NCBI GenBank assembly: GCA_963826115.1
Contig: CAWGVS010000007.1
Coordinates: 64,001-128,000 of the forward strand
DNA length: 64,000 nucleotides
From: an uncultured Candidatus Rokubacteria bacterium
GTDB taxonomy: Bacteria; Methylomirabilota; Methylomirabilia; Rokubacteriales; DASRDR01
Direction: 5' to 3'
The translations under genes and the position numbers were made by a program. The notes beneath the pieces are model-generated. The model was not told where the DNA came from. It saw nothing but the letters and a program-made list of their open reading frames with translations, and did not search any database. Numbering within the stretch: position 1 is the first letter of the stretch; each line of letters opens with the position of its first letter. Positions 1 to 34,684 of the stretch are shown one piece after another.

Positions 1-457
1 CGTCGGCGTAGCTCTGGACCTTGCCCTTCTTGACCGCGACCAGCATGACCTCGAGCTGCGGCCCGTCCTGGCGAAGGATCTGGAAGTCGATGTTGACGTC
101 GTCGATGTCGAAGGGGATGTGCTGCTCGGCCTCCCAGCGGATCGACTCGCCGAGCTCGCTCTCCGACATCTTCGGCAGGTTGACGCGCTTCGCGATGACG
201 GAGCCACCCGACACGCCGATCACCGCCTCGGTGGCCTGGACGCCGCCCTGCACGAGCGCCTGCCGGATGGCCTGCTGCACCGCGTCCGGCTGCTTCACTT
301 CCCCGCCCTGGATCGCTCCCGCGGGGATGTGGGCGATGCCGAACCCGGCCAGCTCGTAGCCTGACCCCTTCGGCTTGAGCTCGACCACCTTGACCGCGCT
401 CGTGCCGATGTCGAGGCCGACGACTTCCGGTCGCTTCTTCTTCTTCCAGAACGTCAT
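1..457 (-). CDS. pilM: Type IV pilus assembly ATPase-like protein PilM (5' part; runs off the window start)
   Basis: Not in the ORF track. Manual translation gives MTFWKKKKRPEVVGLDIGTSAVKVVEL...SESELAESIRWEAEQHIPFDIDDVNIDFQIL; GAGGA RBS upstream. Confidence 0.93.
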   Translation of the reverse strand, partial: MTFWKKKKRPEVVGLDIGTSAVKVVELKPKGSGYELAGFGIAHIPAGAIQGGEVKQPDAVQQAIRQALVQGGVQATEAVIGVSGGSVIAKRVNLPKMSESELGESIRWEAEQHIPFDIDDVNIDFQILRQDGPQLEVMLVAVKKGKVQSYAD

Positions 458-641: not shown

Positions 642-1964
642 CTAGCCGCGCTTGCGGCCGGCCAGAAGCCCGCGAACGGTGGTCAGGAACTCCTGAATGT
701 CGAACGGCTTCGAGATCACCAGGTCGACGCCGAGCTCCCTCGCGCGACGCGTTGCGCGCGCGCGATCGAACCCCGAGAGGATCACGACGGGCGTGGCCGC
801 GTCGACCTGCTTGACGGCCTCCACGACCTCCCATCCCGGAACGTCCGGCATGCCGAGATCCGTGATGACGAGATCGTACGGGCCCTCGCGCTCCCGGACC
901 TTGGCGATCCCCTCGAGCCCCGAGCCCGCGAGCGTCACCGCGTAGGCGGCGCCGCGCAGCATGTCCCCCACCGCCGTGCGCACCGTCTCGTCGTCGTCGA
1001 CCAGCAGCACCTGCGGGCGGTCCGTCTCGGCGGCCGTGACCAGAGGCGGCGCGCCTTCGCCGGCCGTGGGGAGGCGCAGCGTGACGGCGGTGCCGCGGCC
1101 CTCCTCGCTGTCGACCGTGGCGTCACCGCCGTGGCGGGCCATCACGCCGTACACCATCGAGAGTCCGAGACCCAGGCCCGTCTCGCCCTTCGTGGAGAAG
1201 AACGGCTCGAACGCGCGCCGGCGCACGGTCTCGGACATGCCCACACCGGTGTCCGACACCGACACGGTCGCGCGGCCGGCGTCGAGCCCGGTGCGGATGG
1301 TGATGGTGCCGCCGCGCGGCATCGCGTCCACGGCGTTGTGCAGGAGCTGCACGACGGCCTCGAGGAGCTCGGACTCCGCGCCGATGAGCTGAGCGTGCGG
1401 TCCGAAGTGGGTGATCAGCTCGATGGGGGTCCCGCGCGAGCTCGGCTCGTCCCGCCACCGCGCTCGCGTCTGCTCGACCGCGCGCTGGACGATGTCGTTC
1501 AGGTCCACGGGGGCGAAGGGCTCGGCCGGCCGCGAGCGACTGAACTCCTGGATCCGCGAGAGGGCGTCGATCCCCGTCCGCGTGGCGGCCTCGATCTCGT
1601 GGAGCCCGGAGGCGATCTCGCGGGACTTCTCCCGGGACGCGCGCTTCACGAGGAGCTGCGTTCGGCCGAGGATCCCCGCCAGGACGTTGTTGAAGACGTG
1701 CCCGACTCCGCCCGCCATGTTCAGGAGGGCCTGCATCTTTTCGTCGATGGGGACGCGGCCCGCCCGCGCGGCCATCTGGTCCTGCGCGTTCTCCAGCTCC
1801 TCGAGCCGCCGGCGGAGCCTCCGGAGCTCCTCCTCGTCGATCTGGGTGGTGTCGCGAAGGACCTCGCGGACCACCTCCCGATCGACGGGGACCTCGCGCA
1901 CGATCTCCACGGGGACGTCGCGGACGATCTCCCGGACGACCTCTACCGGGACCTCGCGGATCAC
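642..1964 (-). CDS. Hybrid sensor histidine kinase, C-terminal part (end of VPV repeats, coiled coil, HisKA, HATPase_c, REC)
   Basis: H-box-like GVGHVFNNVL, N-box LLHNAVDA, G1 DTGVGM, F-box FEPFFSTK, G2 GLGLGL; receiver LLVDDD...ITDLGMP...ISKPF. Confidence 0.9.
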   Translation of the reverse strand: MIREVPVEVVREIVRDVPVEIVREVPVDREVVREVLRDTTQIDEEELRRLRRRLEELENAQDQMAARAGRVPIDEKMQALLNMAGGVGHVFNNVLAGILGRTQLLVKRASREKSREIASGLHEIEAATRTGIDALSRIQEFSRSRPAEPFAPVDLNDIVQRAVEQTRARWRDEPSSRGTPIELITHFGPHAQLIGAESELLEAVVQLLHNAVDAMPRGGTITIRTGLDAGRATVSVSDTGVGMSETVRRRAFEPFFSTKGETGLGLGLSMVYGVMARHGGDATVDSEEGRGTAVTLRLPTAGEGAPPLVTAAETDRPQVLLVDDDETVRTAVGDMLRGAAYAVTLAGSGLEGIAKVREREGPYDLVITDLGMPDVPGWEVVEAVKQVDAATPVVILSGFDRARATRRARELGVDLVISKPFDIQEFLTTVRGLLAGRKRG

Positions 1965-2644
1965 CTCCCGGTCGACCGGAACCTCCCGAGCCGTCGAACC
2001 ACCTCGACCTCGCGGATCACCTCGACGGGCACTTCGCGCACGACTTCGCGGTCGACCGGCACCTCCCGGATGATCTCCTTCAGGAACTCCACGGGGACTT
2101 GAACCGGGACCTCCCGGAGCACCTCGACCTCGCGGATGACCTCGACCGGCACCTCCCGCACGACCTCGACGGCCACCTCGCGCACGACTTCCCGGTCGAC
2201 GGGGACTTCGCGGACGACCTCCACTTCACGCACCACCTCGACCGGGACTTCCCGCACGACTTCCCGGTCAACGGGGACTTCGCGGACGACCTCCACTTCA
2301 CGCACCACCTCGACCGGGACTTCTCGCACGACTTCCCGGTCGACGGGGACCTCGCGCACCACCTCTCGGAGGAACTCCACGGGCACCTGGACCGGGACCT
2401 CCCGGACGACCTCCACCTCGCGGACGACCTCGACCGGGACCTCCCGGACGACCTCCCGGTCGACCGGCACCTCGCGCACGACTTCGCGGTCGACCGGGAC
2501 CTCCCGCACGACCTCGACTTCGCGGATCACCTCGACGGGTACTTCCCGGACGACCTCGCGGTCGACCGGGACCTCCCGCACGACCTCGACTTCGCGGATC
2601 ACCTCGACGGGCACCTCGCGGACGACCTCCTTCACGACCTCCAC
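1858..2644 (-). repeat. Coding tandem repeat (REVPVDREVV / REVPVEVI / REVEVV units)
   Basis: Directly visible; synonymous third-position variation between units shows that the minus strand is the coding strand. Confidence 0.95.
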
Positions 2645-3484
2645 GGCCGAGGCGGCCGGGGCCGGCTGGGCGGCCTTCATCGAGGACGCGAGGATACCGG
2701 CTGCGAGCTGGGAGGCCAGGAGCTCGTCGGGCGTCGCAGCGCTGTCGCCCGACCGGCCGACAAGCAAGAGGCCCAGCACGGCGTCGCCCGCGCGGAGAGG
2801 CAGCACGCCCGCGGTCCCGACACCCTTGCTCGGCCGCGTGAGCCACAGCGGCTCGCCCCGCCCAAGCACCTGCTTGACCTTGTCGGCCGGCAGCCGCGAC
2901 AGCGCCATGCTCTCGGGCGCAGCCACGACCCAGGACAAGGCCCCATCCGCGGCCGACAAGGCCAGGGCGGCCCACTCCATCCCCGTGGCCCGCGCCAGGC
3001 TCGGAAGGAGCGCCTTGACCGCTTCGTCGGGCGCGCCGCCGTGCCGGAGCGCCTCCTGGAGCGCCGCGGCCAGCGGCTCGAGCAGATGGAGACCGTCCGT
3101 CGCGGCCGGCGCAGCGACTCCCGCCTCGCCGCCACCCGGAACGACCTCGGCCTTCTTCAGGAGGTCCATGAGGAGCCTCGCCCCACGGACGCTCATCACC
3201 TCGACACCGGGCGGCTTGATGGACAGGAGCCGCTCGTATTGCCGCTCGTCGCCGCTGACCTCGAGGACGAGATTGGCCTCGGTCTTGAATACCTCCATCG
3301 CGTTCTTGACGACCTGCAGATGGAGGGTGCGTGCGAGCTTGCCCCCCTCGGAGCGATCGCTCGCGTCCGCGACAATCGCGATGGTGACCCCCGAAACGGT
3401 TCGCAGGGACTCGATGGCCTGGACGAGGTGAATCCCCGTCCCGACCAGCCCTACCTTGTATCCGGTACTCGGGGGCGGCGGCAT
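1961..3484 (-). CDS. Sensor N-terminal part: Rossmann-like domain, GAF-like domain and long VPV repeat (probably frameshifted from 642..1964)
   Basis: KVGLVGTG...IVAD start; GAF-like VLPLRAGDAVLGLLLVG; then ~215 aa of REVPV(D/E) repeats that continue in another frame after ~1990. Confidence 0.75.
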   Translation of the reverse strand: MPPPPSTGYKVGLVGTGIHLVQAIESLRTVSGVTIAIVADASDRSEGGKLARTLHLQVVKNAMEVFKTEANLVLEVSGDERQYERLLSIKPPGVEVMSVRGARLLMDLLKKAEVVPGGGEAGVAAPAATDGLHLLEPLAAALQEALRHGGAPDEAVKALLPSLARATGMEWAALALSAADGALSWVVAAPESMALSRLPADKVKQVLGRGEPLWLTRPSKGVGTAGVLPLRAGDAVLGLLLVGRSGDSAATPDELLASQLAAGILASSMKAAQPAPAASAVEVVKEVVREVPVEVIREVEVVREVPVDREVVREVPVEVIREVEVVREVPVDREVVREVPVDREVVREVPVEVVREVEVVREVPVQVPVEFLREVVREVPVDREVVREVPVEVVREVEVVREVPVDREVVREVPVEVVREVEVVREVPVDREVVREVAVEVVREVPVEVIREVEVLREVPVQVPVEFLKEIIREVPVDREVVREVPVEVIREVEVVRRLGRFRSTGR

Positions 3485-3536
3485 GGGAGCATTATACGCA
3501 GGGGGCCTCAGACTCGAAGATGTTGTGAAACATTCG

Positions 3537-3566
3537 AAAATGCCCTTCGGAAGCGCCTTCGGGGGC
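3537..3566 (-). terminator. Possible intrinsic terminator after the pilX-like gene
   Basis: Imperfect GC stem GCCCCCGAAG-GCG-CTTCCGAAGGGC followed by ATTTT on the minus strand. Confidence 0.35.
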
Positions 3567-5125
3567 TATCGGCAAGGGGTCCCGCCGGTGGTGTCCGCCG
3601 CGTAGTCCGCACACACGCTGATCGACTTGCGGATCAGGATCACAGCGCGGCCCGGGCCGGCCGGGAACCCCGGGGGTGGGGAGGCGCCGCCGTAGGTCGG
3701 GTCATAGGTGAACCGGGTGTCGGCGGACTGGGTCTGGATCTCGAACGCCACGACCCCGCCGTCCAGGGCGATGGGACCGAATCCGACGTGCCCGCCGGAG
3801 TACACGATGCCGTGAACCTCGCTCCCGGTCCCACTTCCCATATCGGCCACCGTTTCCTGAGGCGCCAACGGATTCGCCGAGGGCGCCGGCAGCCGGGGGT
3901 CGTAAACGAGGTACGCAAGGGGGTAGCCGTACACGGGCCGCCCGTGGGCCACGTTCGTCGGCTCCGCCCGCGCGATCGCCTGGGTCCCGTGCCGGAGGTC
4001 GTCGTTCCCGCCGCCGTCGCCCTCCACCACGACGACCCCGTGCACCGCGTCGTGCGCCACCGAGAAGGTCCCGTCCATCACGTACAGGTTCCGGCCGTCG
4101 CCCGGAGCGCCGACGCTCCCGTGGCCGTCCCACGTCACCGCGCCGACGAAGACCATTCCGCTGTGGGCGCCGCAGGCGCCGGACGCGGCGCTGTGGTAGC
4201 GCTCCGGGTCGGCGAGCCGCGGGTCCCCGGCGGGCACGCACGCTCGCCGCGTCGGCACGCAGACCGGCGCCTCGCAGGGCGTGGTCAGCGCGCAGTCGAA
4301 GTAGCCGCGGAAGGTGACGCCACCGAACGTGCCGCAGTCGCCGCGCGCGGCATCACCCTGCACGACGAGCCGCTTGCCCGGCGGATACGGGTAGGCGTAG
4401 GTCTGTCCGGGAGGACAGTTCGCCTCGGTCTCGTGGTGGAGCGTCACGTCGATCACGGAGCATCCGAGCTGGGGGCGCGGTAGGTCGTCGTAGGCCGCGG
4501 GGCCGCCGGAGGACTCGTTCGGGTCGGCCGGCGCGATCGCCGGGCGGCCGTTCCGGCCCGCGGGCTCGTTGCAGTGGCCCGGCGGGTTGTCCCGGCTCGA
4601 ACTCGCGCACACGTGCTTCCAGGGGTGATCGATCGCGACCAACGCCCGCACTCGCGCCCGCCCGAGGCCGCTTCCAGCTTCTGCCCAAGCGGTGAGCACC
4701 GCGGTCTCGTTCGCATCGCGGGCCGGCGCGGCACCGCTACACGCCGGGTCCTGGATCGCCGGGGGCACGAGGGGGCTGCAGTCGTTGTCGACGACGGCGG
4801 AGTAGCGGCCGGCGCCCAGCGCGGCGTCCGCGGAGAGCAGGGACGCCAGCCCGGCCCCGCATCCCCACGCGGCCGAGCGCCCCGGATCCGTCCACCGCGT
4901 GAACCCGCACGGGTCCCCGGCGGCCGGCCGCAGGTGGTCCCGTCCGCGCTCGAGGCCGGCCTCGGCGAGGGCCTCGGCCTGCGCCTGGGCCTTGTAGCTC
5001 GCCCCGGTCGTCACCTCGATCCGGGACAGCAGCGCGAACGAGAAGCTCAAGATGCCGAGGACGAGCATGGCGACGACGGCCAGGACGAGAACCGATCCGC
5101 GCTGGTCGGCTCCGATCGCGTGCAT
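3566..5125 (-). CDS. PilX-like minor pilin with a large Cys-rich C-terminal region
   Basis: MHAIGADQRG|SVLVLAVVAMLVLGIL (no E5, as is typical of PilX); QAEALAEAGLERG motif; GGAGG RBS. Confidence 0.8.
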   Translation of the reverse strand: MHAIGADQRGSVLVLAVVAMLVLGILSFSFALLSRIEVTTGASYKAQAQAEALAEAGLERGRDHLRPAAGDPCGFTRWTDPGRSAAWGCGAGLASLLSADAALGAGRYSAVVDNDCSPLVPPAIQDPACSGAAPARDANETAVLTAWAEAGSGLGRARVRALVAIDHPWKHVCASSSRDNPPGHCNEPAGRNGRPAIAPADPNESSGGPAAYDDLPRPQLGCSVIDVTLHHETEANCPPGQTYAYPYPPGKRLVVQGDAARGDCGTFGGVTFRGYFDCALTTPCEAPVCVPTRRACVPAGDPRLADPERYHSAASGACGAHSGMVFVGAVTWDGHGSVGAPGDGRNLYVMDGTFSVAHDAVHGVVVVEGDGGGNDDLRHGTQAIARAEPTNVAHGRPVYGYPLAYLVYDPRLPAPSANPLAPQETVADMGSGTGSEVHGIVYSGGHVGFGPIALDGGVVAFEIQTQSADTRFTYDPTYGGASPPPGFPAGPGRAVILIRKSISVCADYAADTTGGTPCR

Positions 5126-6606: not shown

Positions 6607-7503
6607 TCAGCTGGCCGTGGGGACCTCGTCGCTCTTGGGGGGGTAGCCGGTGACGCGGTTCCGGCCCGCGCGCTTCGACCCGTAGAGGGCCTCGTCGGCC
6701 GCCCAGACGATCTCGTCCGAGTTCCGGCCGTCCTGAGGAAACGCGGCGAGACCGATGCTGACCGTGATGGGGTTCAGGCTGTCGGGCGCCATGACGCTCG
6801 ACTCGACCCGCCGGCGGAACCGCTCGGCGAACACGAGCGCGTCGGACTTGCCCGTCTCGGGCAGGATGAAGGCGAACTCCTCGCCGCCGACACGGCACGG
6901 CACGTCGCCCTCGCGCGAGGCCGAGCGCATGAGAGCCCCGAGGGCGCGCAGCACGGCGTCGCCCTTGGGATGGCCGAACTCGTCGTTGAACTTCTTGAAG
7001 CCGTCGATGTCGATCATCAGCAGGCTGAACGCGTGGCCGAAGCGGCTGGACCGGCTGATCTCCTCGCGGAGTCGCAGGTCGAAGTTCCGCCGGTTCCCGA
7101 CCTCCGTGAGCTCATCGGTGTGCGACATCTCCCGGAGCCGGAAGTTGGCCAGGCGGAGCTCCTCGACGATCCCGTCCGCCCGGGCGCCGCTCATCCGTAG
7201 CCGCTCGAGCTCCTCGTCGAGGCTCCGCTGCATGTGCCCGAGGACGTCGCTGTAGATCATGTAGAAGCCGGCGAGCTCGAGGAACGCGAGGATCGCGAGG
7301 AGCGCGAAGAAGACGGGCGCCCCCTTCGGATAGAGGGGCGCGTTCGCGGTCGACGGCAGCATGACCGGGAGGCCCAGGTAGATGAGGAACAGCAGCGGGA
7401 GCAGCCCCGCCATGAGGAAGGCAAAGAGGAACTTCTTCCGGATGTCGCGCCCGGGCAGCACCACCCGGGGTCGGCCGGGCCGAGTCGGCTCCCGCTCAGC
7501 CAA
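6607..7503 (-). CDS. Membrane-anchored diguanylate cyclase (2 TM + GGDEF)
   Basis: DELTEVGNRR, DIDGFKKFNDEFGH, RxxD I-site (REGD) and GGEEF. TTG start overlaps the pilD stop; start position uncertain. Confidence 0.9.
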   Translation of the reverse strand: MAEREPTRPGRPRVVLPGRDIRKKFLFAFLMAGLLPLLFLIYLGLPVMLPSTANAPLYPKGAPVFFALLAILAFLELAGFYMIYSDVLGHMQRSLDEELERLRMSGARADGIVEELRLANFRLREMSHTDELTEVGNRRNFDLRLREEISRSSRFGHAFSLLMIDIDGFKKFNDEFGHPKGDAVLRALGALMRSASREGDVPCRVGGEEFAFILPETGKSDALVFAERFRRRVESSVMAPDSLNPITVSIGLAAFPQDGRNSDEIVWAADEALYGSKRAGRNRVTGYPPKSDEVPTAS

Positions 7504-8527
7504 GGTACCACTCCATGATGGGCCGGCCCCAGACGGCCGCCACGATCCCGCCGGCCGCCAGGAAGGGCCCGAAGGGCAGGTACTCGCCGAAGCGCCGGCG
7601 CCCCGAGACGAGCAGCCCCGCCGCCACCACGCCGCCCAGCATGATACCGACGAACGCGGCCACGAGCCCGCCGCCCACGCCGAGCGCCGCACCGATGAGT
7701 CCCGCGAGCTTGATGTCGCCCCCGCCCAGGCCCGTGCGTCCGAGCACCGCGTAGCTCACCCAGGCGACCACGAAGAACAGGCCGCCCGCGATGATGCAGC
7801 CCGCGACCACGTGGTCGACCTGGGCCAGCACCCTGAACGTCAGCGGCACGTCCGGCATCGTCAGGGTCGCGACGTCCACGACCGCCAGCTGGCGCCCGAC
7901 CAGCGCGCCCCACGCGCCGGCCCAGTAGACGTCGAGGCGCCGGCGCTCCGCGGGATCGACCTCGTCGTCGCCCTCGGGCGCCGGTGGAGGCGGCCCACCT
8001 TGCGCGGCCGCCCGGCGCGCCCGCATCGCCGCGATCAGGCCGAAGACGACCCCGCCCACGATGGCGCCGAGGCTCCCCCGTGAGAGGCCCTCGGGCGCCA
8101 GCACGCAGGCGCCGACCACCGCCGGGAGCGTGATGCGATCCGGGATCCGGCGCGTCTCGAGATCCGTGAACGCCGTCGCCACCATCGCCAGGCAGAGGAG
8201 AAAGACGCGGAACGCCTCCCACGTCGGACCGAGCTGCCACAGCGCCAGCGCGCCCATGAGGATGGCGAGGGCCTCGACCAGCGGGTAGCGCCAGGGGATG
8301 GCCACGCCGCAGGCCCGGCACCGCCCGCCGAGCACGATGTAGGACAGGAGCGGGATGTTGTCGACGGGCCGGATCGGGGTGTGACACTTCGGGCAGTGCG
8401 AAGCGGGCAGGACGATGCTCTCCCCCCGCGGCAGCCGCGAGATGCACACGTTGAGGAAGCTGCCCAGGAGCGCGGCCAGGATGACCCCGGCCGGCCAGGC
8501 CACGACGGGCGGGAGCGTGGTGCTCAC
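7496..8527 (-). CDS. pilD: Prepilin peptidase/N-methyltransferase
   Basis: GSFLNVCISRLP, SHCPKC, GRCRAC, YPLVE, TDLE, GGGDIKL, PFGPFL. Confidence 0.95.
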   Translation of the reverse strand: MSTTLPPVVAWPAGVILAALLGSFLNVCISRLPRGESIVLPASHCPKCHTPIRPVDNIPLLSYIVLGGRCRACGVAIPWRYPLVEALAILMGALALWQLGPTWEAFRVFLLCLAMVATAFTDLETRRIPDRITLPAVVGACVLAPEGLSRGSLGAIVGGVVFGLIAAMRARRAAAQGGPPPPAPEGDDEVDPAERRRLDVYWAGAWGALVGRQLAVVDVATLTMPDVPLTFRVLAQVDHVVAGCIIAGGLFFVVAWVSYAVLGRTGLGGGDIKLAGLIGAALGVGGGLVAAFVGIMLGGVVAAGLLVSGRRRFGEYLPFGPFLAAGGIVAAVWGRPIMEWYLG

Positions 8528-8832
8528 GTCCCGCGCTCCGCGTCAGCCGCGCCGTACCGCTGGATCGCGCGCGCCAGCACCTGGGGCCAGCGGCCGCGGT
8601 CCCGGAGCGCCCCGAAGCCCTCCGGCGCGAGCACCCGCTCGACCTCGGCCCGGCTCACCGACACCTCGCCCTCGCCGCCGGCGAGCACCACCGTGTCGAG
8701 GACCGAGAAGCGCTCGAACACGCGGATCGCGGTCGCGAGCGCCAGGGTCTCGCGCTCGGCGGGCAAGGGGTCCGCCGCGCCCACCCGGAGCGTTACCCCG
8801 GCCAGGCTGACGTTGTCGACCCAGGTCTTCAC
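8524..8832 (-). CDS. Small hypothetical protein (102 aa)
   Basis: GTGA start/stop overlaps with both neighbours; globular-looking composition. Confidence 0.65.
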   Translation of the reverse strand: MKTWVDNVSLAGVTLRVGAADPLPAERETLALATAIRVFERFSVLDTVVLAGGEGEVSVSRAEVERVLAPEGFGALRDRGRWPQVLARAIQRYGAADAERGT

Positions 8833-9989
8833 GCCGGCACCTCGACGGGCATGCGGTCCCGCATCATGCGGAGCGTCCGGTCCAGCACGCGGACGAGCCG
8901 CGGGTCGAAGGTGCGGCCCGCCTCGTCCCGCACGAAGGTGCGAACCTGATCGAGCGGGATCGCCCTCTTGTACGCGCGCCGCGACGTCATCGCGTCGAAG
9001 ACGTCGGCCAGGCACGCGAGGCGGCTCACCGGGTGCTGGCGCCAGCCTTCCCGGACGAACGGATAGCCCTTGCCGTCGTACCGCATGTGGTGCTCGAACG
9101 CCACGATCAGCGGGAGCCGGTTCGACCCCGGCAGCCGGGCGAGGAGATCGGCCCCCAGGACCGGGTGCCGGCACATGATGCGCCATTCCTCCGCGTCGAG
9201 GAGCCCGGGCTTGCGCAACACCTCGACCGGGATCGCGATCTTCCCGAGATCGTGGAGCATTCCGGCCATTCCGAGCTCGCGGAGGAGCTCATGGGGCAGG
9301 CCGAGCGCGAGCCCGATGCCCATCGAGATGAGGGCAACGTTGACGGAGTGGTAGAGGGTGTACTCGTCATACGACTTGATGCTGGCCAGCCTGAGCACGA
9401 GGCCTGGGCTTTGCAGCATTTGTTCCAAGATGGTGGAGGTGTACACCCGCAGGGTCCCGACGTGCTCCACCGTGAGGGCCCGCCGGGCACGGATCAGGGA
9501 CTCCACGTCCCGCAGCACCTCGATGGACCCGTAGTAGGCGCGCCGGGCGACCCCTTCCCCGCTCTGCCGGTCGGGCTGGCTCGGGGAGGCCAGGTGGAGG
9601 TGCGCGAGCCGCCGCTGGGCCACCCACTCCTCGAGGGACGGCCCAACCCCATCGGTCAGCGCCTCGAGGAGGGCGTCGATCTCCCGGTCCTCGAGGCCCG
9701 CCGTGAAGCCCACGACGCCGATCCCCCGCTCGCGCTGGCAGGTCTCGAGGAAGCGTCGGTACAGGAGGCTCTCGCGCGGGAGGATGCGGTCGTTGGCAAC
9801 GAGGAGGTCGCCCATGAACCGGTACGTCAGCCGCCCCTGCCCGCCCAGATAGGCGGTCAGGGCCTGGAAGAGGGTCTGCTTCGCGCGACGCGTCTGGGGG
9901 TGCGTCGGCAAGTAGAGACCCGCGGCGCGCAGCATGCCGTGCATGTACGTAAAGATGAGCTGCGGATCCGGCCGCGGTGCGTCACTCAT
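8829..9989 (-). CDS. HD-GYP domain cyclic-di-GMP phosphodiesterase
   Basis: YTLYHSVNV, MLHDLGK, EHHMRYDGKGYP, ADVFDAMTSRRAYK. Confidence 0.92.
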   Translation of the reverse strand: MSDAPRPDPQLIFTYMHGMLRAAGLYLPTHPQTRRAKQTLFQALTAYLGGQGRLTYRFMGDLLVANDRILPRESLLYRRFLETCQRERGIGVVGFTAGLEDREIDALLEALTDGVGPSLEEWVAQRRLAHLHLASPSQPDRQSGEGVARRAYYGSIEVLRDVESLIRARRALTVEHVGTLRVYTSTILEQMLQSPGLVLRLASIKSYDEYTLYHSVNVALISMGIGLALGLPHELLRELGMAGMLHDLGKIAIPVEVLRKPGLLDAEEWRIMCRHPVLGADLLARLPGSNRLPLIVAFEHHMRYDGKGYPFVREGWRQHPVSRLACLADVFDAMTSRRAYKRAIPLDQVRTFVRDEAGRTFDPRLVRVLDRTLRMMRDRMPVEVPA

Positions 9990-12021
9990 CGCGGTCGTCC
10001 TCGACGTCGGCGCGCGCGGCCAGCGCGGTCGCGGCCATGTCACGAAGGCGGCGCTCCGTCCGCTTCCAGGGCCAGACGCGGCGGTGCGCCAGGGCCGCGA
10101 GCGCGTCGCGCGCCCCGGGGTCGGTGATCGCGCCGAGGGCTTCCACGGCCTCCTGGCGCAGCGCCAGGTCGGCGCCCACCGCCCCCGTGCCCGCGGCCAC
10201 GTCGCGGAGAACCGGGACCGCCTCCCCGCGGCGGAGCGCCCCGAGCGCGCGCACGGCCTCCACCCGCACCTCGGGGTCGGCGTCGCTCGCCACCGTGACG
10301 AGGGGCGCCGTGGCCCGGGCCGGCGCGATGAGCGCGAGCGCGCGGGCGGCCTCGATACGGACCCGCGGATGGGGGTGCCCGAGCAGCGTCACGACCGGCT
10401 CGAACACGGCCTCGTCGCCGACCTTGCCCAGGATGAGGGCCAGATTGCGCACGAGATACCAGCGGGGATCCTCGAGCCACTCCAGGAGCACGGGCACGAC
10501 CGACGGGCCGACCTTGGCCAGCACCTGGCACATCCGCGCACGGACCTGGCGGTCGCGCTCCTCGGCCAGGAGCTGCGTGAACTCCCCCACGGCCTGCCGC
10601 GCCACGAGGCCGAGGTACTGGGCGATCAGCTCCAGCTGGCGGTCGTTGCCGCCATGCTGCCGCAGGAGTCCGCCGAGGAGGGCGACGTGCGTGCGGCCGC
10701 CCAGGCGCTCCTGGAGAACCGTGAGGTGCTGGACGCGCTCCCGGCTCCGCGCGTCGGCCTCGCGGACGGAGGCCTCGATCGACGACAGCACGTGCGTCGC
10801 CAAGTCGACCCGACCCCGGGCCAGCGCCTCGCCCAGGATCTCCTCGAGCGCGTCCGTCGCGGACGTCCCGTACTCCTCGCCGTCGACGTTGAGCACGAGG
10901 GCGAGGAGGATTTCGGCACTGCGCTCGAGGAGGGGATCCGGCTGGCACGAGGCCAGGATCTCCTCCCGCAGCTCCGCGACGAGCGGATCGTCGGCCTCGA
11001 CCACCACGCCCTCGTCCCCGAGGATGCTCGGCGCCCCGTCGCCCTGCACCGCGGCCGTGATCGCCTCGACCAGCCGGCGTCGCTGGACCTCCTCCCACGG
11101 GAACTCGAGGAGCTCCGAGCTCAGGGCGAGGAGCGACTCGTGGGGCACCAGCCGGGCCGCCATGTGTCGGATCTCGTCCTCGGTCATCTGGCTGAGGAGG
11201 TTGAGGGCGAGGACCTCGCGACCGGCCAGCGGGATGAGGTGGTCGGTGAAGAACGGTCGGAGGAGATCCTCGGGCAGCCCCAGGAGAGCCTCGACCAGGG
11301 TCCGCGTCCGCACCTCGCGGTCGGGGGCGGCCTCGACGAGCCCGTGAATCATCCCGACCGCGGCGTAGAGCCGGTCGGGGCCACCGGCCGCCGTCGCCTG
11401 GAGCCACACGACCATCGCGGGACGGTCGTACGTCAGGTCCGCGAACCGCGCCTCGACGAGCCCGACCACGGTCTCGGCAAAGAGGTCGACCACGTCGTGG
11501 CCGGTCTCGAGCATCCGCCGGGTCGCGTCGGTCGGGTCCGCGTCCCCCTCCGCCGCGTCGCCCGGCGCCGCGACGCGCACGCGCAACACGCCGCGGGTCG
11601 TCAGGAAGGCGCTCGCTCCGCCCAGCTGGCGCAGCTCGCCGTCGGGCGTGTTCAGGAGGTCGAGGAGCGCCTGGATCTCCCACTCTTCGACCGCGGCGTC
11701 GATGTCGAGCTCCCGGATGCCCCGGCTCTCGAGGTCGAACCGGAACGCCTCCAGCGCGGGATCCCGGGTCCGGAGATCGGGCCCGACCCACACGAACCGG
11801 TCGGCCTCCACGCGGAGCGGGAACGCGAGCCCCTGCTGGAAGAACTCGGCCAGCGTGCGATGCAGGCGACGGACCCACGACGAGGCGATCTCGCTCCCCG
11901 CCGGATACAGGCTGAGCGACTTCCGCGACGCCATGAGGGCCCGCAGGAAGAGGCCCAGGACCCGCTCGCCGCCTGCGGTTTCGGCGGCCTGGACGGTGTC
12001 GCTCGCGCCGCGGGCGGTCAC
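9982..12021 (-). CDS. HEAT-repeat protein
   Basis: C-terminal repeats DPRWYLVRNLALILG, HPHPRVRIEAARAL, DADPEVRVEAVRAL; GTGA coupling to the upstream gene. Confidence 0.87.
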   Translation of the reverse strand: MTARGASDTVQAAETAGGERVLGLFLRALMASRKSLSLYPAGSEIASSWVRRLHRTLAEFFQQGLAFPLRVEADRFVWVGPDLRTRDPALEAFRFDLESRGIRELDIDAAVEEWEIQALLDLLNTPDGELRQLGGASAFLTTRGVLRVRVAAPGDAAEGDADPTDATRRMLETGHDVVDLFAETVVGLVEARFADLTYDRPAMVVWLQATAAGGPDRLYAAVGMIHGLVEAAPDREVRTRTLVEALLGLPEDLLRPFFTDHLIPLAGREVLALNLLSQMTEDEIRHMAARLVPHESLLALSSELLEFPWEEVQRRRLVEAITAAVQGDGAPSILGDEGVVVEADDPLVAELREEILASCQPDPLLERSAEILLALVLNVDGEEYGTSATDALEEILGEALARGRVDLATHVLSSIEASVREADARSRERVQHLTVLQERLGGRTHVALLGGLLRQHGGNDRQLELIAQYLGLVARQAVGEFTQLLAEERDRQVRARMCQVLAKVGPSVVPVLLEWLEDPRWYLVRNLALILGKVGDEAVFEPVVTLLGHPHPRVRIEAARALALIAPARATAPLVTVASDADPEVRVEAVRALGALRRGEAVPVLRDVAAGTGAVGADLALRQEAVEALGAITDPGARDALAALAHRRVWPWKRTERRLRDMAATALAARADVEDDRDE

Positions 12022-17355: not shown

Positions 17356-18768
17356 TCATTGCGCCGCGTCGTCCGGGCCGCCGTCAGGGCCCGTGCCGCG
17401 CTCGATCATCCCGTACTTCTGGAGACGATAGCGGAAGGACCGGAAGCCCGTCCCGAGGAGCTGCGCCGCGCGGCTCTGCACGCCGTCCACGCGATCGAGC
17501 GCGCGCCGGATCAGATCGCGCTCGATCTGCTCCATGAGCTTGTCGAGGTCGATGCCCTCCGGCGGGAACTCGACGTGGAAGGCGTCGGGCGGCCGCGGGC
17601 GCCGGAGGGAGTCCGGCAGGCTCTCCGGGCGGATGATCGGCCCGGGCTCGAGGGTCACGGCTCGCTCGACCACGTTCTCCAGCTCCCGGATGTTGCCCGG
17701 CCACGCATAGGCCTCCAGGCACGCGAGCGCCTCGGGGCTCAGGACCTTCGGGGGCGCCCCCGCCAGCTCGGTGAACTTCTGGAGGAAGTGGTTGGTGAGC
17801 AGCGGGATGTCCTCGCGGCGCTCGCGGAGCGAGGGCAGCGCCACGGCGATGACGTTCAGCCGGTAGAAGAGGTCCTCGCGGAAGACGCCGCGCGCCATCG
17901 CCTGGGCGAGATCCCGGTTCGTGGCCGCGATGATCCGCACCTCGACGCGGACCGGCTTGGTCCCGCCGACCGGCCGCACCTCGCGGTCCTCGAGCACGCG
18001 GAGGAGCTTCGCCTGGAGGTGGGTCGACATCTCGCTGATCTCGTCGAGCAGGAGCGTGCCGCCGTCCGCGGTCTCGAACAGCCCCTGCTTGTTGGCGATG
18101 GCGCCCGTGAACGCGCCGCGCACGTGGCCGAAGAGCTCCGACTCCATCAGCTCGTTGGGGATGGCCGCGCAGTTCACGGCCACGAACGGCCCGTTCTTCC
18201 GGCTCGAGTTGAAGTGGATGGTCTTCGCGAGCAGCGTCTTGCCGGTGCCGCTCTCCCCCGTCAGGAGGACCGTCGCCCGGGACTCGGCCAGCCGGCTGAT
18301 GGTCGAGAAGAGCTCCTGCACCTTGGCGCTCTTGCCCACCATGTTGCCCAGCGTGTAGCGGAGCTCGACCTCGCGTCGCAGCCGCTGGTTCTCCCAGCGG
18401 AGCCGCCGCTCCTCGAGCGCCTTCCGCACCACCAGCTTCAGCTCGTCGACCTTGAACGGCTTGATCAGGTAGTCGTAGGCGCCTTCCTTGAGGGCCTGGA
18501 TCGCGGTCTCGGTCGTGGCGAAGGCCGTGACGATCACCACCGCCACCGTCTCGCTGATCTCCTTGAGCCGCCGGAGCGTCTCGAGCCCGTCCATGCCCGG
18601 CATCTTGAGATCCACGAGCGCGAGGTCCGCAGGCGCCTCGGCCATGGCCTTGAGGGCCTCGGGGCCGGACGCGGCCGCGACGACCTCGAAGCCGTCCCGC
18701 CCGAGAGTGATCGTGAGGAACTCCCGGAGGCTCTGATCGTCGTCGACGACGAGGACGCGTTCGATCAC
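17356..18768 (-). CDS. pilR: Sigma54-dependent response regulator PilR
   Basis: REC, GESGTGK, GAFTGA and C-terminal HTH; located between pilS and pilA. Confidence 0.9.
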
Positions 18769-18772
18769 GGGT

Positions 18773-20449
18773 CTAGCCCTCGCTCAGGGGGAGTGAGATG
18801 GTGAACCGGCTCCCCCGGTATGGCTCGCTCTGCACGTGGATCTCGCCGCCGTGGTCCTCGACGATCCGGTGCGCGATCGCGAGCCCGAGCCCGGTTCCCT
18901 GGGGCTTGGTCGTAAAGAATGGCTCGAAGACCTGGGCCAGCTCGGCGGCGCTGATGCCGACGCCGGTGTCCTCGACGGTGATCTCCTGCACGGGCTTGGC
19001 CGAGCCGGCGCCCACGGTTCGGACGCCCACCCGGAGCTCCCCGCCCTGGGGCATCGCCTCGACCGCGTTGAGGCAGAGGTTCCACAGGGCCTGGCGCATC
19101 TGCGAGGGGTCGACGTCCGCCTTCGCCGTCGGCTCGGCCATGTCCCGCCGCATCTGGACCGGCGCCGCGCCCCCGCTCTTGGTGCCCCGCTGGTGCGAGA
19201 GCATCAGCAGGATCTCGTCGAGCATCGCCGGCATGTCGGTGGGGACCCGCACCAGGTGGGGCGGCCGGGAGAACTGGAGGAAGTCCCGGATGATCGCGTC
19301 CAGCCGGTCCGACTCCCGGAGGACGATGTCCATGAGGCGCCGGTCGTCCTCCTGCGGATCGAGACTCCCGCGCAGGACCTCCACCGAGCCGCGAATGGAG
19401 CCGAGGGGATTCCGGATCTCGTGGGCGAGCCCGGCGGCCAGGCGCCCGATGGCCGCCAGGCGGTCCGCCTGCCGCACCTGCTCCTCCATCCGCCTGATCT
19501 CGGTGAGGTCCTGGAAGGAGCAGATCGCGCCGCGGCCGCGGCGGAGGAACGACAGGCTCATGCCGACCGGGATCCGGGAGCCGTCGGGGCGCACGAGGTC
19601 GGCCTCGGAGCGGGTCCGCCGCGCGCTTCCGCCCTCCAGGCTCTCCCACACGCTGGCGAACGGCGACGCGCCGGGGAACAGCGTCTCCCACCGGGCCCCC
19701 CGGAGCTCCATCTCGCGGCGGCCGCACAGGCTCTCGGCGGCCCGGTTGACGGAGGTCACGACCCCTCGGCGGTCGAAGGTCAGGAGCCCGCTCGCGACGC
19801 TCTGGACGATATCCTCGTGGAGGGCGCGCAGGGCCGCGAGGCTCGCCTCGTTGCGATGCGCCTCGCCGCGCGCCTGGCGGAGCCGGCCGGCCAGATAGGT
19901 CCCCAGGTACGCCATCAGGAAGCACGCGCAGAAGTTCGTGCTGATGATCAGGATGGTGAGGCTGCCTTCCATCCCGACGTTGCGCGCCAGCAGGTGGTCC
20001 ACCGCCGGCGGGAGCCAGCGGTAGAACTGGGCGCCCAGCGTCACGCCGTGGAGGAACACCGCGACGGTCGCGACCCCGAAGCTCTCCCGCGGCGCCACGA
20101 TGATGCTGGCCGTGAGGATCGACACGAGATAGAGGAACGGAAAGACACTGTACGGCCCGCCCGTGAGGTAGATCAGGATCGTCGCGAGGACGATGTCCCC
20201 GTAGATCTGGACCTCGGCCAGCCAGACGGGGTTGCGGACGTGCCCGAGGAGCGCGAGGTAGACGGCGGACAAGAGGTATGTCGCCGCGAGAAGCGTCAGG
20301 ACCGGCGGGAGCGGGAACAGGGTCAGGCCGCTGAGGCTCGCCCCGATCAGCGCCGCCGCGAGCAGGGACACGAAACCCGTCCGGCCGTAGACCAGCCAGC
20401 GGACCGTGCCCTGTCCCTCGGGTGGCGTGATCATCCCGCTCCCCACCAC
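18773..20449 (-). CDS. pilS: Sensor histidine kinase PilS
   Basis: Six-TM N-terminus with TGG..SVFPFLY, PAS-like region, AHEIRNPL, HATPase. Confidence 0.88.
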   Translation of the reverse strand: MVGSGMITPPEGQGTVRWLVYGRTGFVSLLAAALIGASLSGLTLFPLPPVLTLLAATYLLSAVYLALLGHVRNPVWLAEVQIYGDIVLATILIYLTGGPYSVFPFLYLVSILTASIIVAPRESFGVATVAVFLHGVTLGAQFYRWLPPAVDHLLARNVGMEGSLTILIISTNFCACFLMAYLGTYLAGRLRQARGEAHRNEASLAALRALHEDIVQSVASGLLTFDRRGVVTSVNRAAESLCGRREMELRGARWETLFPGASPFASVWESLEGGSARRTRSEADLVRPDGSRIPVGMSLSFLRRGRGAICSFQDLTEIRRMEEQVRQADRLAAIGRLAAGLAHEIRNPLGSIRGSVEVLRGSLDPQEDDRRLMDIVLRESDRLDAIIRDFLQFSRPPHLVRVPTDMPAMLDEILLMLSHQRGTKSGGAAPVQMRRDMAEPTAKADVDPSQMRQALWNLCLNAVEAMPQGGELRVGVRTVGAGSAKPVQEITVEDTGVGISAAELAQVFEPFFTTKPQGTGLGLAIAHRIVEDHGGEIHVQSEPYRGSRFTISLPLSEG

Positions 20450-20462
20450 GCCCTGCGGGGCC

Positions 20463-21692
20463 CTACTTGACCAGCGTCACCACCTTGAAGATCGGCAGGT
20501 AGATCGCGATGACGATACCGCCGATCACCACGCCGAGGAACACGATCAGCAGCGGCTCGAGCAAGGCGGTCAAGCCGGAGACCGCCACGTCGACCTCGTC
20601 CTCGTAGTAGTCGGCGACCTTCGCCAGCATGTTGTCGAGCGCGCCGGTCTGCTCGCCGACGATGACCATCTGGACGACCATCGGCGGGAACACCCCGCTG
20701 TCCTTCAGGCGCTCGCCGAGGGTCTGTCCGGCCATGACTCGCTCGCGAGCGGCCATGACCGAGTTCTCGACGACGCGGTTGCCCGCGGTCTTGGCGGTGA
20801 TGCGCAGCGCGTCGATGATCGGCACGCCGCCACCCAGGAGCGCCGACAGGGTGCGCGTGAAGCGGGCGATCGAGATCTTCCGCACCAACGGCCCGAAGAT
20901 CGGGGCCCGGAGCAGGAAGCGGTCGACCGCCAGCCGGCCCGCCACGGTCCGGTACCACATCCGGAAACCGTACATTGCGGCCACCCACGCCGCGATGATG
21001 ATGTACCAGTACCGCACCACCCCGTTGCTGATCGCGATGACGATGCGGGTCGGCAGGGGCAGCGGCACACCGGCGTTCTCGAAGAACGCAGAGAAGATCG
21101 GGATGATGAAGACCATCAGGAACGCCACGACCAGGACCGCGATGGTCATGACGAGGATCGGGTACACGATGGCCATCTGCACGCGGTGCTTCAGCGCCTG
21201 GGCCTTCTCGAGGTACGTGGAGAGCCGCGAGAGCATCGAGTCGAGCACGCCGCCCGTCTCGCCGACGTGCACCAGGTTCACGTACAGCTCGTCGAAGACC
21301 CGCGGGAACCGGCCCAGCGCGTCGGACAGGGTGGACCCCGACTCCACGTCGGACGCGACCTTGGCGATGATGTCCTGGAAGCCCTTCCGCTCCATCTGCA
21401 TGCCCAGCGTCTGAAGGCACTGGACGAGCGGGAGACCGGCCGCGATCATCGTGGCGAACTGCCGGCTGAAGACCGAGATGTCCTTGCCGCGGACGCCGCC
21501 GACGAGCGCCTTGATCCCGGGCAGCTCGTTGAGGGAGAACGAGGCGTTGACACCCCGCTTCACGGCGATGTTCTGGACGACGATCCCCTGCGAGCGGAGC
21601 TGGCGCGCCGCCGCGCGCTCGTCCGGCGCCGTGATCTCCGCCCGGACCTGCCCGCCGCCCGCCGTGACGCCCCGATACGTGAAGTTCGGCAT
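20463..21692 (-). CDS. pilC: Type IV pilus inner-membrane platform protein
   Basis: FSRQFATMIAAGLPL, GETGGVLD, GEQTGALD, LEP motifs. Confidence 0.95.
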   Translation of the reverse strand: MPNFTYRGVTAGGGQVRAEITAPDERAAARQLRSQGIVVQNIAVKRGVNASFSLNELPGIKALVGGVRGKDISVFSRQFATMIAAGLPLVQCLQTLGMQMERKGFQDIIAKVASDVESGSTLSDALGRFPRVFDELYVNLVHVGETGGVLDSMLSRLSTYLEKAQALKHRVQMAIVYPILVMTIAVLVVAFLMVFIIPIFSAFFENAGVPLPLPTRIVIAISNGVVRYWYIIIAAWVAAMYGFRMWYRTVAGRLAVDRFLLRAPIFGPLVRKISIARFTRTLSALLGGGVPIIDALRITAKTAGNRVVENSVMAARERVMAGQTLGERLKDSGVFPPMVVQMVIVGEQTGALDNMLAKVADYYEDEVDVAVSGLTALLEPLLIVFLGVVIGGIVIAIYLPIFKVVTLVK

Positions 21693-21711
21693 GGCTTCCC
21701 CCGTGTCGGCC

Positions 21712-22803
21712 CTAGCGGGCGGCGATCGCCGCCGGCTGGTCCATCATGCGGAGCAGCTCCTCCGGATACGAGCTCCGGGATAGCGCCTCCGGCCGCGAGA
21801 CGTGGCCACGGAGGTACAGGTTCGCGAGCGACTGGTTCATCGTCTGCATCCCGAACTTCTGGCCCGCCTGCATCGCCGAGTAGATCTGGTGGACCTTCTC
21901 CTCGCGGATCATGTTGCGGATCGCGGGGGTGGCGATGAGGATCTCCATCGCGAGCGACCGGCCGCGGCCGTCGCGTCGCGGGATCAGGAGCTGGTTGAAG
22001 ACGGCCTCCAGCACGAGGGCCAGCTGGGCGCGCACCTGGGACTGCTGGTGCGGCGGGAAGACGTCGATGATCCGGTCGATCGACTGGGCGCACGAGTTGG
22101 TGTGCAGCGTCGCGAACGTGAGGTGCCCCGTCTCCGCGATCGTCAGCGCCGCCTGGATCGTCTCGAGGTCGCGCATTTCGCCGATCAGCACGACGTCCGG
22201 GTCCTGCCGCAGCACGTACTTGAGGGCGGCCGGGAACGAGTGGGTGTCGCTCCCCACCTCGCGCTGGTTCACGAGCGCTTTCTGATGCTGGAACAGGTAC
22301 TCCAGCGGGTCCTCGACCGTGACGATGTGGACGTCGCGCTCCCGGTTGATCCGGTCGAGCATGGCCGCCATCGAGGTCGTCTTCCCGTGCCCGGTCGGTC
22401 CCGTGACCAGGATGAGCCCCTTGTGCCGCTGGATCAGCTGGGTGCAGATCTCCATCGGCAGCCCGAGCTCCTGGAAGCTCTTCGGCTGGTGGGGAATGGA
22501 CCGCAGCGCGACGCCCACCGCCCCCCGCTGCCGGTACACGTTGACCCGGTACCGGGAGAGCCCCGTCACCCCGTACGAGAAGTCCAGCTCGTGGTTCGAC
22601 TCGAACCGCTCCCGCTGCTCCGCGTTGATCAGGCTGTACGCGAGAGCCTTCGTCTGCTCCCCGTCGAGCGGCGCGTAGTCCAGGGCCACCAGGTGGCCGT
22701 GGACACGCAGCGTCGGGGCCGCGCCGGCGGTGATATGGAGGTCCGACGCGTTCCTCTCCGCCATCGCGACGAGAAGATCGCGCATCGACACGTTCTGGTT
22801 CAC
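21712..22803 (-). CDS. pilT: Pilus retraction ATPase
   Basis: ASDLH, GPTGHGKTT, LRQDPD, TLHT, AIRNMIRE, GMQT. Confidence 0.95.
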   Translation of the reverse strand: MNQNVSMRDLLVAMAERNASDLHITAGAAPTLRVHGHLVALDYAPLDGEQTKALAYSLINAEQRERFESNHELDFSYGVTGLSRYRVNVYRQRGAVGVALRSIPHQPKSFQELGLPMEICTQLIQRHKGLILVTGPTGHGKTTSMAAMLDRINRERDVHIVTVEDPLEYLFQHQKALVNQREVGSDTHSFPAALKYVLRQDPDVVLIGEMRDLETIQAALTIAETGHLTFATLHTNSCAQSIDRIIDVFPPHQQSQVRAQLALVLEAVFNQLLIPRRDGRGRSLAMEILIATPAIRNMIREEKVHQIYSAMQAGQKFGMQTMNQSLANLYLRGHVSRPEALSRSSYPEELLRMMDQPAAIAAR

Positions 22804-22823
22804 GGCTCTTCCCCCTTTGGCCC

Positions 22824-24527: not shown

Positions 24528-24555
24528 GGCCGGGCGACCTCCTCGGCGAGCCCGG

Positions 24556-24933
24556 TCACGTCCGCGCCTTCGGCGACGCGCCCAGCGTCTCGTTCACGAG
24601 TTCAAGGAAGCGATCCAGGCCCGACCCCTTCTCGAAGAAGGAGACGGCCTTGTGGTGAGCGACCTTTTTGGCAAGGGAATCGCCGACGAGGCCGGTGATC
24701 AGGATCACGGGCAGCTCTCCGCTCGTCCGGCGGATGGCGTCCAGAACGACCAAGCCGTCCATGTCGGGCATCATGATGTCGATCACCGCCAGCTCGGGCG
24801 GAGACTCCTCGAACCGCCGGAGCGCCTCCTGACCGGAGGTCGCCCGGATCACTTGATGGCCCTCGAGTGTCAGGATGTCATCCAGGACATCCAGGACAGC
24901 CGGGGCGTCGTCGGCAACGAGGATGCGTGCCAT
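24556..24933 (-). CDS. Single-domain response regulator
   Basis: ILVADD, VIDIMMPDMDG, ITG, EKG. Confidence 0.88.
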   Translation of the reverse strand: MARILVADDAPAVLDVLDDILTLEGHQVIRATSGQEALRRFEESPPELAVIDIMMPDMDGLVVLDAIRRTSGELPVILITGLVGDSLAKKVAHHKAVSFFEKGSGLDRFLELVNETLGASPKART

Positions 24934-34617: not shown

Positions 34618-34636
34618 CGGCAAGATAGCAGTCAGA

Positions 34637-34665
34637 TTGACAGGCCTAGAGGGGCTCCGTAGACT
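34637..34665 (+). promoter_or_regulatory. Sigma70-type promoter of the lytic transglycosylase gene
   Basis: TTGACA-N17-TAGACT. Confidence 0.65.
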
Positions 34666-34684
34666 GGCCTCCGGTTACCCAAGC

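Follow-up and report, generated by a model that had tools for sequence, protein, structure and literature searches.

The DNA analysed here (the window) is a 64,000-nt stretch from an uncultured soil bacterium of the Methylomirabilota. At positions 642-3484 of the minus strand it carries the gene of a Methylomirabilota-specific, cytoplasmic hybrid histidine kinase whose sensor and kinase halves are separated by a long repeat built mainly of Val, Glu, Arg and Pro. The family architecture is a Rossmann-like N-terminal domain (N-domain), an optional GAF domain, the repeat, a coiled coil, a dimerisation and histidine phosphotransfer (DHp) domain, a catalytic domain and a receiver. The gene is part of a type IV pilus cluster, in which it lies between the minor-pilin genes and pilMNOQ. 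What is new is the inter-domain repeat of this hybrid kinase, which is unusual, under selection, non-helical and of a class that is widespread but uncharacterised. We describe the anatomy, conservation, selection, two-residue rule, length variability and genomic context of this repeat kinase, and propose that the repeat is an extended, non-helical spacer or tether, the kinase being controlled through proximity, localisation or oligomeric state. We give this reading a probability of about one half.

The repeat extends from 1857 to 2644 and comprises 260 aa (V 41%, E 23%, R 15%, P 8%; 87% V/E/R/P), in agreement with the ~260-aa block that an initial annotation of the window had placed between sensor and transmitter. 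It is read in two frames. Part A (1997..2644, minus strand) gives 216 aa in the frame of the upstream open reading frame, ORF-A; part B (1857..1988, minus strand), the best-conserved stretch of the repeat, gives 44 aa in that of the downstream one, ORF-B. The units are REVPVDREVV, REVPVEVV/I, REVEVV, K/REVV and REVPVQVPVEFL, and in the underlying DNA Tandem Repeats Finder reports arrays whose periods range from 12 to 144 nt. Part A contains 41 acid-base dyads and 18 VPV motifs and part B 4 more VPV (22 in total); Gly, Ser and Thr are absent from part A, where Ala occurs once.

A strict two-residue rhythm runs through the block. In the window and in 7/7 orthologs, all R/K fall on odd positions and all E/D/P on even ones, the sole exception being one Gln in the ortholog L002. 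Unit lengths are 4, 6, 8, 10 and 12 aa, and all 109 distinct unit strings collected (542 units, 20 repeat regions) are even in length. The hydrophobic moment is maximal at 180 degrees (1.29, versus 0.41 at 100 degrees). Self-identity is highest at lag 24 in the window and at lags 22 and 44 in the ortholog L001; lag-12 identity is 0.39 and 0.37.

The repeat is also constrained as protein. Its eight copies of REVPVDREVV are encoded by eight distinct DNA versions (mean identity 0.86), so that identical peptides differ at synonymous sites and the units are old. The repeat as a whole has a ratio of non-synonymous to synonymous substitution rates (dN/dS) between orthologs of 0.12, and its last 66 aa one of 0.057; the second value carries more weight because alignment inside repeats is ambiguous. 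The Gly/Ala/Pro-rich linker upstream stands at 0.43, compared with 0.13 for the N-domain, 0.16 for the GAF domain and 0.03 for the receiver (folded domains, 0.03-0.16). As judged from these ratios the repeat is under purifying selection, and the protein-level selection that the initial annotation had deduced from synonymous variation between units is borne out.

One genome per species was scanned, and nine loci were found, seven of which span the whole N-terminal query at 75-82% identity; six of the seven are named as Methylomirabilota or Rokubacteria, the seventh being an ‘uncultured bacterium’ record. In 7/7 orthologs one uninterrupted ORF of 903-932 aa runs from the N-domain via the repeat to the receiver, and the repeat measures 216-248 aa. 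The initial annotation had considered that orthologs might lack the repeat and had suggested comparing repeat number and pil synteny: both the repeat, in one ORF, and the synteny are present in all seven.

A word-indexed search added at least 35 clusters to the family. Their source names (‘signal transduction histidine kinase/...response regulator’ or ‘response regulator, partial [Methylomirabilota bacterium]’) are generic and cover the kinase and receiver parts only. The flanks are constant across the family (the N-domain before the repeat; coiled coil, DHp, catalytic domain and receiver after it), and the repeat itself varies widely. Reading individual sequences gave repeats of ~38 aa (P0176), ~140 aa (P0157) and ~290 aa (P0161) in proteins with a GAF domain, and of ~45 aa (P0183), ~150 aa (P0171) and ~235 aa (P0169) in proteins lacking one. 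A scripted, looser mask, which over-reads by ~10 aa (228 versus 216 in L001), gave 40-287 aa, a ~7-fold range, among 27 complete family members, incomplete sequences having been dropped. The GAF domain is present in 21 of these 27 and absent from 6, and the repeat is present in all 27. On a maximum-likelihood tree of the kinase core, with a midpoint root for drawing only, repeat length changes both between and within clades, and the GAF-bearing P0173 stands beside the GAF-less P0183 and P0184, their cores being almost identical.

Structure prediction gave no fold for the repeat. In an AlphaFold2 monomer model of full-length L001 (9-row alignment, mean pLDDT, the predicted local distance difference test, 51.7), residues 278-506, corresponding to the repeat, have a pLDDT of ~25 and neither helix nor strand. 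A two-copy complex prediction of L001 residues 284-499, again from a 9-row alignment, gave no answer (score 0.00), which counts neither way for binding. The fraction of charged residues is 0.43, and mean hydropathy is 0.517, above the charge-hydropathy boundary of 0.455 and so in the ‘folded’ range.

The same class of repeat occurs in many other proteins. A phmmer search with ORF-A against 1.84 billion representatives returned 409 matches at E <= 1e-3, and most of those listed cover the repeat only. Among the 129 listed matches without the N-domain, a biased run is found in 119 and reaches at least 100 aa in 92; both charge parities are >= 0.9 in 39 of these 92. A Pfam scan of 114 repeat-bearing matches assigned any family at E <= 1e-4 to 31 of them, the partner families including PadR, HHH_5, DUF2760, SPOR, PTS_EIIC_2, SBP_bac_5, G5, Trypsin_2, PLDc_2, CAP_GLY and PH. 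Two cases stand out. In P0130, which is soluble and chemoreceptor-like, a 200-aa EVPVE/EKIVE repeat that keeps the period-2 register perfectly lies between an upstream PAS_4 domain and MCPsignal, a second, unrelated case of the order sensor-repeat-output. P0275 starts with a lipoprotein lipobox signal, followed by ~13 tandem REVPVDREVV copies and SBP_bac_5; its repeat gives a weak cross-hit to Pfam Extensin_1. Named eukaryotic matches come from the dinoflagellate Effrenium voratum, the gregarine Blabericola migrator and the basidiomycete Rhizoctonia solani; they are no proof of homology, the sequence being of low complexity. The V/E/R/P block belongs to a widespread class of period-2 Val/Pro/acid-base repeats, found between the functional modules of many unrelated proteins, bacterial as well as eukaryotic.

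How might such a block work in a kinase? In histidine kinases the signal passes from sensor to DHp via continuous helices whose register is defined. Such a mechanism is incompatible with a non-helical block that varies ~7-fold in length (~40-287 aa) among collinear homologs; this variation argues against register-dependent transmission and for a spacer or tether. The extended conformation that we propose is further suggested by the contexts of the repeat class: in every one of them the repeat stands between two modules, and in one it is the stalk that joins a lipid anchor to a binding domain. The repeat would keep an N-terminal sensing or docking module apart from the kinase core, at a distance free to vary in evolution. 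No register-dependent conformational relay would run through it, unlike in the helical linkers of histidine kinases, and the kinase might instead be controlled through proximity, localisation or oligomeric state.

Several points weigh against this proposal. The strict two-residue rhythm and the dN/dS typical of folded domains exceed the needs of a passive spacer and point to strand pairing or a specific partner. Its hydropathy above the boundary is atypical of a disordered linker. The stalk examples lie outside the cytoplasm or are tethered to the membrane, whereas the kinase protein has no membrane segment. The model of the repeat is of low confidence, and a pLDDT of ~25 from a 9-row alignment looks alike for disorder and for structure acquired only on assembly. 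Lastly, the gene is broken in the window, so that the organism may not produce the fused protein.

Strand pairing is the core of the next explanation, which we regard as possible but rather unlikely: like the structures proposed for alveolins and articulins, the repeat would associate with itself as a beta-ribbon or cross-beta scaffold and so gather the kinase at the pilus machinery. Unstructured alone, it would pair with the other subunit of the dimer, or with many copies, to form a ribbon or lattice. In the period-2 pattern V and R/K indeed share one face and E/D/P occupy the opposite one, purifying selection is comparable to that on folded domains, hydropathy lies over the disorder boundary, and dinoflagellate and gregarine proteins are among the eukaryotic matches. 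The articulin-type ABD criteria (acid-base dyads with V/I-rich strings between them, more than three VPV modules, G/A nearly excluded, few S/T), as given in PMC6212826, describe the composition of the repeat in its dyads, its VPV count and its scarcity of G/A/S/T. According to PMC12465100, alveolin domains are likewise disordered as AlphaFold monomers and form a twisted beta-ribbon with the right partner.

Alveolins proper are another matter. The IMCp profile (PF12314) matched neither ORF-A nor ORF-B at E <= 1, none of L001, L004 and L005 at E <= 0.1, and none of the 114 repeat-bearing matches at E <= 1e-4; a protein language-model search (Atlas) gave a weak lead to an IMCp-bearing cluster (score 0.82, rank 6). 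Nor was there a sign of the 12-residue periodicity reported for alveolins (PMC4303705). On these two results the repeat is not a member of the alveolin family. The initial annotation had called the repeat alveolin/articulin-like and had suggested the IMCp search; the articulin-type composition held, and the search came back empty for the window, the three orthologs scanned and the other repeat-bearing proteins. A self-associating scaffold is further disfavoured by the occurrence of the repeat class in lipoprotein stalks and many unrelated architectures, which a generic spacer fits better than a specific polymer, and by the 7-fold length range, which includes versions of 40-50 aa. Parallel in-register pairing of identical chains would moreover be expected to stack like charges. 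What keeps strand pairing alive is that a strict period 2 together with strong purifying selection is its signature and is left unexplained by a spacer. The ‘rigid or self-assembling spacer or scaffold’ of the initial annotation is best retained as a spacer, in keeping with the 7-fold length range and the lipoprotein stalk; self-assembly, clustering and rigidity found no support.

The boldest form of the scaffold idea, a bacterial counterpart of the alveolin/articulin module whose chains pair into a beta-ribbon tens of nm long or into a lattice, we consider unlikely. Were it true, 260 fully extended residues could form a ribbon of up to ~88 nm, its length tuned by gain and loss of units; for a coil, the end-to-end distance would be ~13 nm. 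The kinase would then be the first signalling kinase on a cytoskeleton-like self-assembling element, placed or clustered at the type IV pilus machine, and the period-2 rule in hundreds of unrelated bacterial and eukaryotic proteins would mark a general uncharacterised structural element.

The repeat could also be the sensor itself. As an elastic or environment-responsive element, a Val/Pro polyampholyte spring whose extension or solubility changes with temperature, ionic strength or force, it would alter the geometry of the kinase dimer and allow pilus-linked mechanosensing. Such a role would suit the Val/Pro-rich composition, the charged fraction with its well-mixed acid-base dyads, the position of the gene in a pilus cluster with cyclic di-GMP (c-di-GMP) enzymes, and the fact that GAF is dispensable in 6/27 complete family members while the repeat is always kept. 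We nevertheless find it doubtful: Pro makes up only 8% and Gly is absent, unlike in elastin or titin PEVK, and nothing anchors both ends of the protein.

That the block is a tolerated low-complexity linker devoid of a specific role, a product of slippage kept because harmless, seems improbable. Its length is very variable, no structure is predicted with confidence, and the gene in the window tolerates, or suffers, a frameshift inside it. A harmless insert is, however, hard to reconcile with a dN/dS of 0.06-0.12 next to a true linker at 0.43, with old units differing at synonymous sites, with the complete lack of odd-length units (0/109 types) or with the loss of the repeat in 0/27 complete family members.

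Very unlikely, in our judgement, is a short-helix solenoid akin to repeats of the MgtE_N or FliG type. The Pfam profile MgtE_N does score just above its cut-off of 25.9 on the Lys-rich paralogs P0169 (29.7 bits) and P0161 (40.6 bits) and also matches several unrelated repeat proteins. It (PF03448) has no match in the window at E <= 1, nor in L001, L004 or L005 at E <= 0.1; AlphaFold2 predicts no helix; and 41% Val, a Pro every 6-10 residues, irregular unit lengths and a low hydrophobic moment at 100 degrees all speak against helices. The MgtE_N matches are probably a low-complexity cross-hit. Lying above the gathering cut-off on Lys-rich versions of the repeat, they could mislead automatic annotation.

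Least credible of all is a mis-assembled expansion: an 8-nt frame-breaking insertion and one extra unit coincide at one spot of the window, which makes assembly errors plausible there, but seven of seven independent genome assemblies and many metagenome proteins have a similar repeat length and unit order, so that an artefact is refuted for the repeat as a whole, whereas the 8-nt insertion may still be one.

The break itself concerns the reading frames of the window. The initial annotation had placed one hybrid kinase at 642..3484; its domain order was right, but the single ORF was not, the 8-nt frameshift at 1989-1996 having been overlooked, and the minus strand holds two ORFs. ORF-A (1961..3484, minus strand; 507 aa, ATG start) encodes the N-domain, linker, GAF domain and 216 repeat residues and ends with an 11-residue out-of-frame tail, RRLGRFRSTGR, and a stop. 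The repeat goes on in the frame of ORF-B (642..1964, minus strand; 440 aa from GTG, the frame being open from 2018), which encodes the last 44 repeat residues, the coiled coil, the DHp, the catalytic domain and the receiver. The TGA stop of ORF-A overlaps the GTG that opens ORF-B. Aligned as DNA with the orthologs, the window has 26 additional nt, namely one 18-nt REVEVV unit and the 8 nt (1989..1996, minus strand), the latter absent from 7/7 orthologs. Either the 8-nt insertion is an error of sequencing, consensus or assembly in repetitive DNA, or the gene is truly disrupted or split. A programmed frameshift was rejected by inspection, there being no slippery heptamer near 1961-2010 and 7/7 orthologs being in frame. 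The kinase gene in the window deserves a frameshift flag in annotation.

Two side observations concern the same region. L007 and L008, which belong to one metagenome-assembled genome, are separated by a contig break at the start of the kinase gene: L008 stops after the first 28 codons and the L007 contig begins 46 nt upstream of the gene, which suggests that the locus is hard to assemble. Two ORFs lie antisense over the repeat, at 2099-4483 (plus strand, 794 aa) and 2136-3431 (plus strand, 431 aa, reading TSTGTSRTTS...). As by-products of GC-rich repetitive DNA, they are not genes.

The sensor half begins with an N-terminal alpha/beta domain (3152..3460, minus strand), whose conserved columns are a GxxGxG loop (3434-3451) and Asp40 after strand 2. 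In the AlphaFold2 model built for residues 1-281 (22-row alignment, mean pLDDT 80.9), this alpha/beta domain, at pLDDT 90-96, is followed by a low-confidence linker and a second domain. For the N-domain, the Atlas leads at score 0.87 are NAD-binding Rossmann N-terminal domains (GFO_IDH_MocA, DapB_N, CoA_binding, NAD_binding_3), and Foldseek matches the acetaldehyde dehydrogenase chains 1nvm_D and 4jn6_B at E ~4e-4. A sequence profile of the domain retrieved 0 PDB sequences at E <= 10 and no family in Pfam or NCBIfam, so that ‘Rossmann-like’, which comes from fold and Atlas leads, is a lead and not a membership. The N-domain is also an uncharacterised family on its own (P0010-P0016, P0018, P0024). 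It is found in ~200-aa proteins, some with an Arg-rich tail, fused to membrane segments in some cases, or, among P0010-P0024, directly followed by a short repeat and then by a receiver or coiled coil.

A flexible Gly/Ala/Pro-rich linker (3092..3151, minus strand; pLDDT 36-50), the one with dN/dS 0.43, joins the N-domain to the GAF domain (2669..3091, minus strand). The GAF assignment combines a Foldseek fold match, at probability 1.0 to many GAF structures, among them 3cit_B and 4g3k_B (TM-scores normalised to the target 0.63 and 0.73), with a weak Pfam GAF_3 match. The latter gives 22.5 bits (E = 1.6e-4) on the window, under the cut-off of 27, and 32.7 bits, over the cut-off, on the paralog P0161. 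The GAF-like domain of the initial annotation is confirmed as a fold and is weaker as a Pfam assignment; its Rossmann-like domain stands as a lead from fold and Atlas.

In the kinase half, a predicted helix or coiled coil (1755..1856, minus strand; helix at residues 507-530 in the L001 AlphaFold2 model) joins the repeat to the DHp. The H-box (1665..1718, minus strand) is of the HxFNN type, with the phospho-accepting His at 1698-1700, and is flanked by helices in the L001 model. HATPase_c (1065..1376, minus strand) scores 82.1 bits in Pfam against a cut-off of 26.4 and displays the N box (1320-1346), G1 (1236-1253), F (1188-1211) and G2 (1158-1178) motifs. The C-terminal receiver (REC; 663..1013, minus strand) scores 80.8 bits against a cut-off of 30.2, with its phospho-acceptor Asp at 858-860. 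The features of a hybrid histidine kinase, namely the DHp His, HATPase_c with its N/G1/F/G2 motifs and the receiver Asp, are all present. Of the HisKA-HATPase-REC order initially annotated, the catalytic domain, the receiver and the H-box His stood, and the HisKA profile itself was weak (E = 0.58 on the window).

The kinase had been described as encoded inside the pilus locus, and this was the case: it lies directly upstream of pilMNOQ in 7/7 loci. Along the direction of transcription, the window holds a stand-alone receiver; PilB, PilT and PilC; PilS and PilR; further genes; an HD-GYP protein, PilD (the prepilin peptidase) and a GGDEF protein; the minor pilins; the repeat kinase; and PilM. 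The next gene downstream of the kinase is the start of pilM (2..457, minus strand; PilM_2 at E = 1.5e-74 in the L002 ortholog), and in L002 PilM is followed by PilN, PilO and the PilQ secretin. The prepilin peptidase gene is flanked by those of a GGDEF diguanylate cyclase (6607-7692, minus strand) and an HD-GYP-type HD domain protein (8829-10043, minus strand), an arrangement kept in L002-L005 that points to c-di-GMP control of the pili.

The canonical PilS/PilR pair, PilC, PilT, PilB and the stand-alone receiver occupy 17359-24933 (minus strand). PilS has 6TM_PilS, PAS, HisKA and HATPase domains, and PilR a REC, a sigma-54 activator domain and HTH_8; given this canonical pair in the window, the repeat kinase is a second, additional regulator of the cluster. 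The PilT-like T2SSE ORF (21715-23148, minus strand) overlaps the PilB ORF (22827-24527, minus strand) by ~320 nt; its Pfam match covers residues 225-398 only, and its true start is probably further downstream. Elsewhere in the window lie two DUF4124 proteins, at 34538-35410 (plus strand) and 36933-37547 (minus strand), one with an SLT transglycosylase and the other with a retropepsin-like aspartyl protease.

The kinases described here form a conserved, selected family in which 40-290 non-helical, Val-rich residues occupy the junction where register normally matters. Either the N-terminal module acts by proximity, localisation or oligomerisation, or the repeat class has an undescribed structure and mechanics. 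The class extends over hundreds of protein clusters, among them lipoprotein stalks, PadR regulators, a PAS-MCP receptor, and dinoflagellate and apicomplexan proteins. One solved case would inform both the bacterial examples and the poorly understood skeleton proteins of the alveolin/articulin type.

Among known systems, the DHp-catalytic-receiver core is nearest, within NCBIfam, to the CckA, PRK13557 and EspC-type hybrid kinases (E 1e-38 to 1e-43). At ~147 bits against family cut-offs of 631-1200 the scores are far too low for membership of these families, and the input region differs. Canonical linkers of histidine kinases, namely the signalling helix and HAMP, take the same position between sensor and DHp, and a short coiled coil precedes the DHp here too; those linkers are helical, whereas the repeat is non-helical and its length varies ~7-fold among homologs. 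The titin PEVK segment is a low-complexity block of Pro, Glu, Val and basic residues, regarded as an extended elastic spacer. By composition, the repeat is much poorer in Pro and much richer in Val, and it keeps a strict period 2.

With the alveolins the repeat shares Val/Pro/charged tandem repeats that have no confident monomer structure (PMC12465100), and lacks both their IMCp profile and their 12-residue period (PMC4303705). Articulins and ‘epiplastin’ ABD domains, from the membrane skeleton of euglenids, ciliates and cryptophytes, are, as described in PMC6212826, likewise V-rich, with dyads and VPV, and are likewise flanked by ordinary domains. They are predicted as beta-strand or coil free of alpha-helix; for the repeat, the low-confidence model (pLDDT ~25) has no helix and no strand either. 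The differences are a V content of 41% against 25 +/- 7% in the ABD survey, the use of R and not K, the dominance of the RE (base-acid) order, and flanks made of signalling domains instead of head and tail regions (same source). The organism studied here is not known to have a cortical skeleton. The likeness being compositional, homology with articulins does not follow from it.

Bacterial articulin-like proteins are noted only in Caulobacter, and without function (PMC6212826, PMC4303705). Neither a kinase with such an insert nor a bacterial repeat beyond this Caulobacter remark was found in the literature searched, which covered few subscription journals. The initial annotation had known of no such signalling architecture; this agrees with the literature, and not with the sequence databases, which hold the protein with PAS, a 200-aa repeat and MCPsignal. 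For the bacterial stalk or spacer repeats as well, no characterisation was found in the literature searched. These proteins (P0275, PadR-repeat-membrane proteins and DUF2760 proteins) are mostly membrane-anchored or extracytoplasmic, unlike the kinase described here; their repeats consist of REVPVDREVV or near variants and always lie between two modules.

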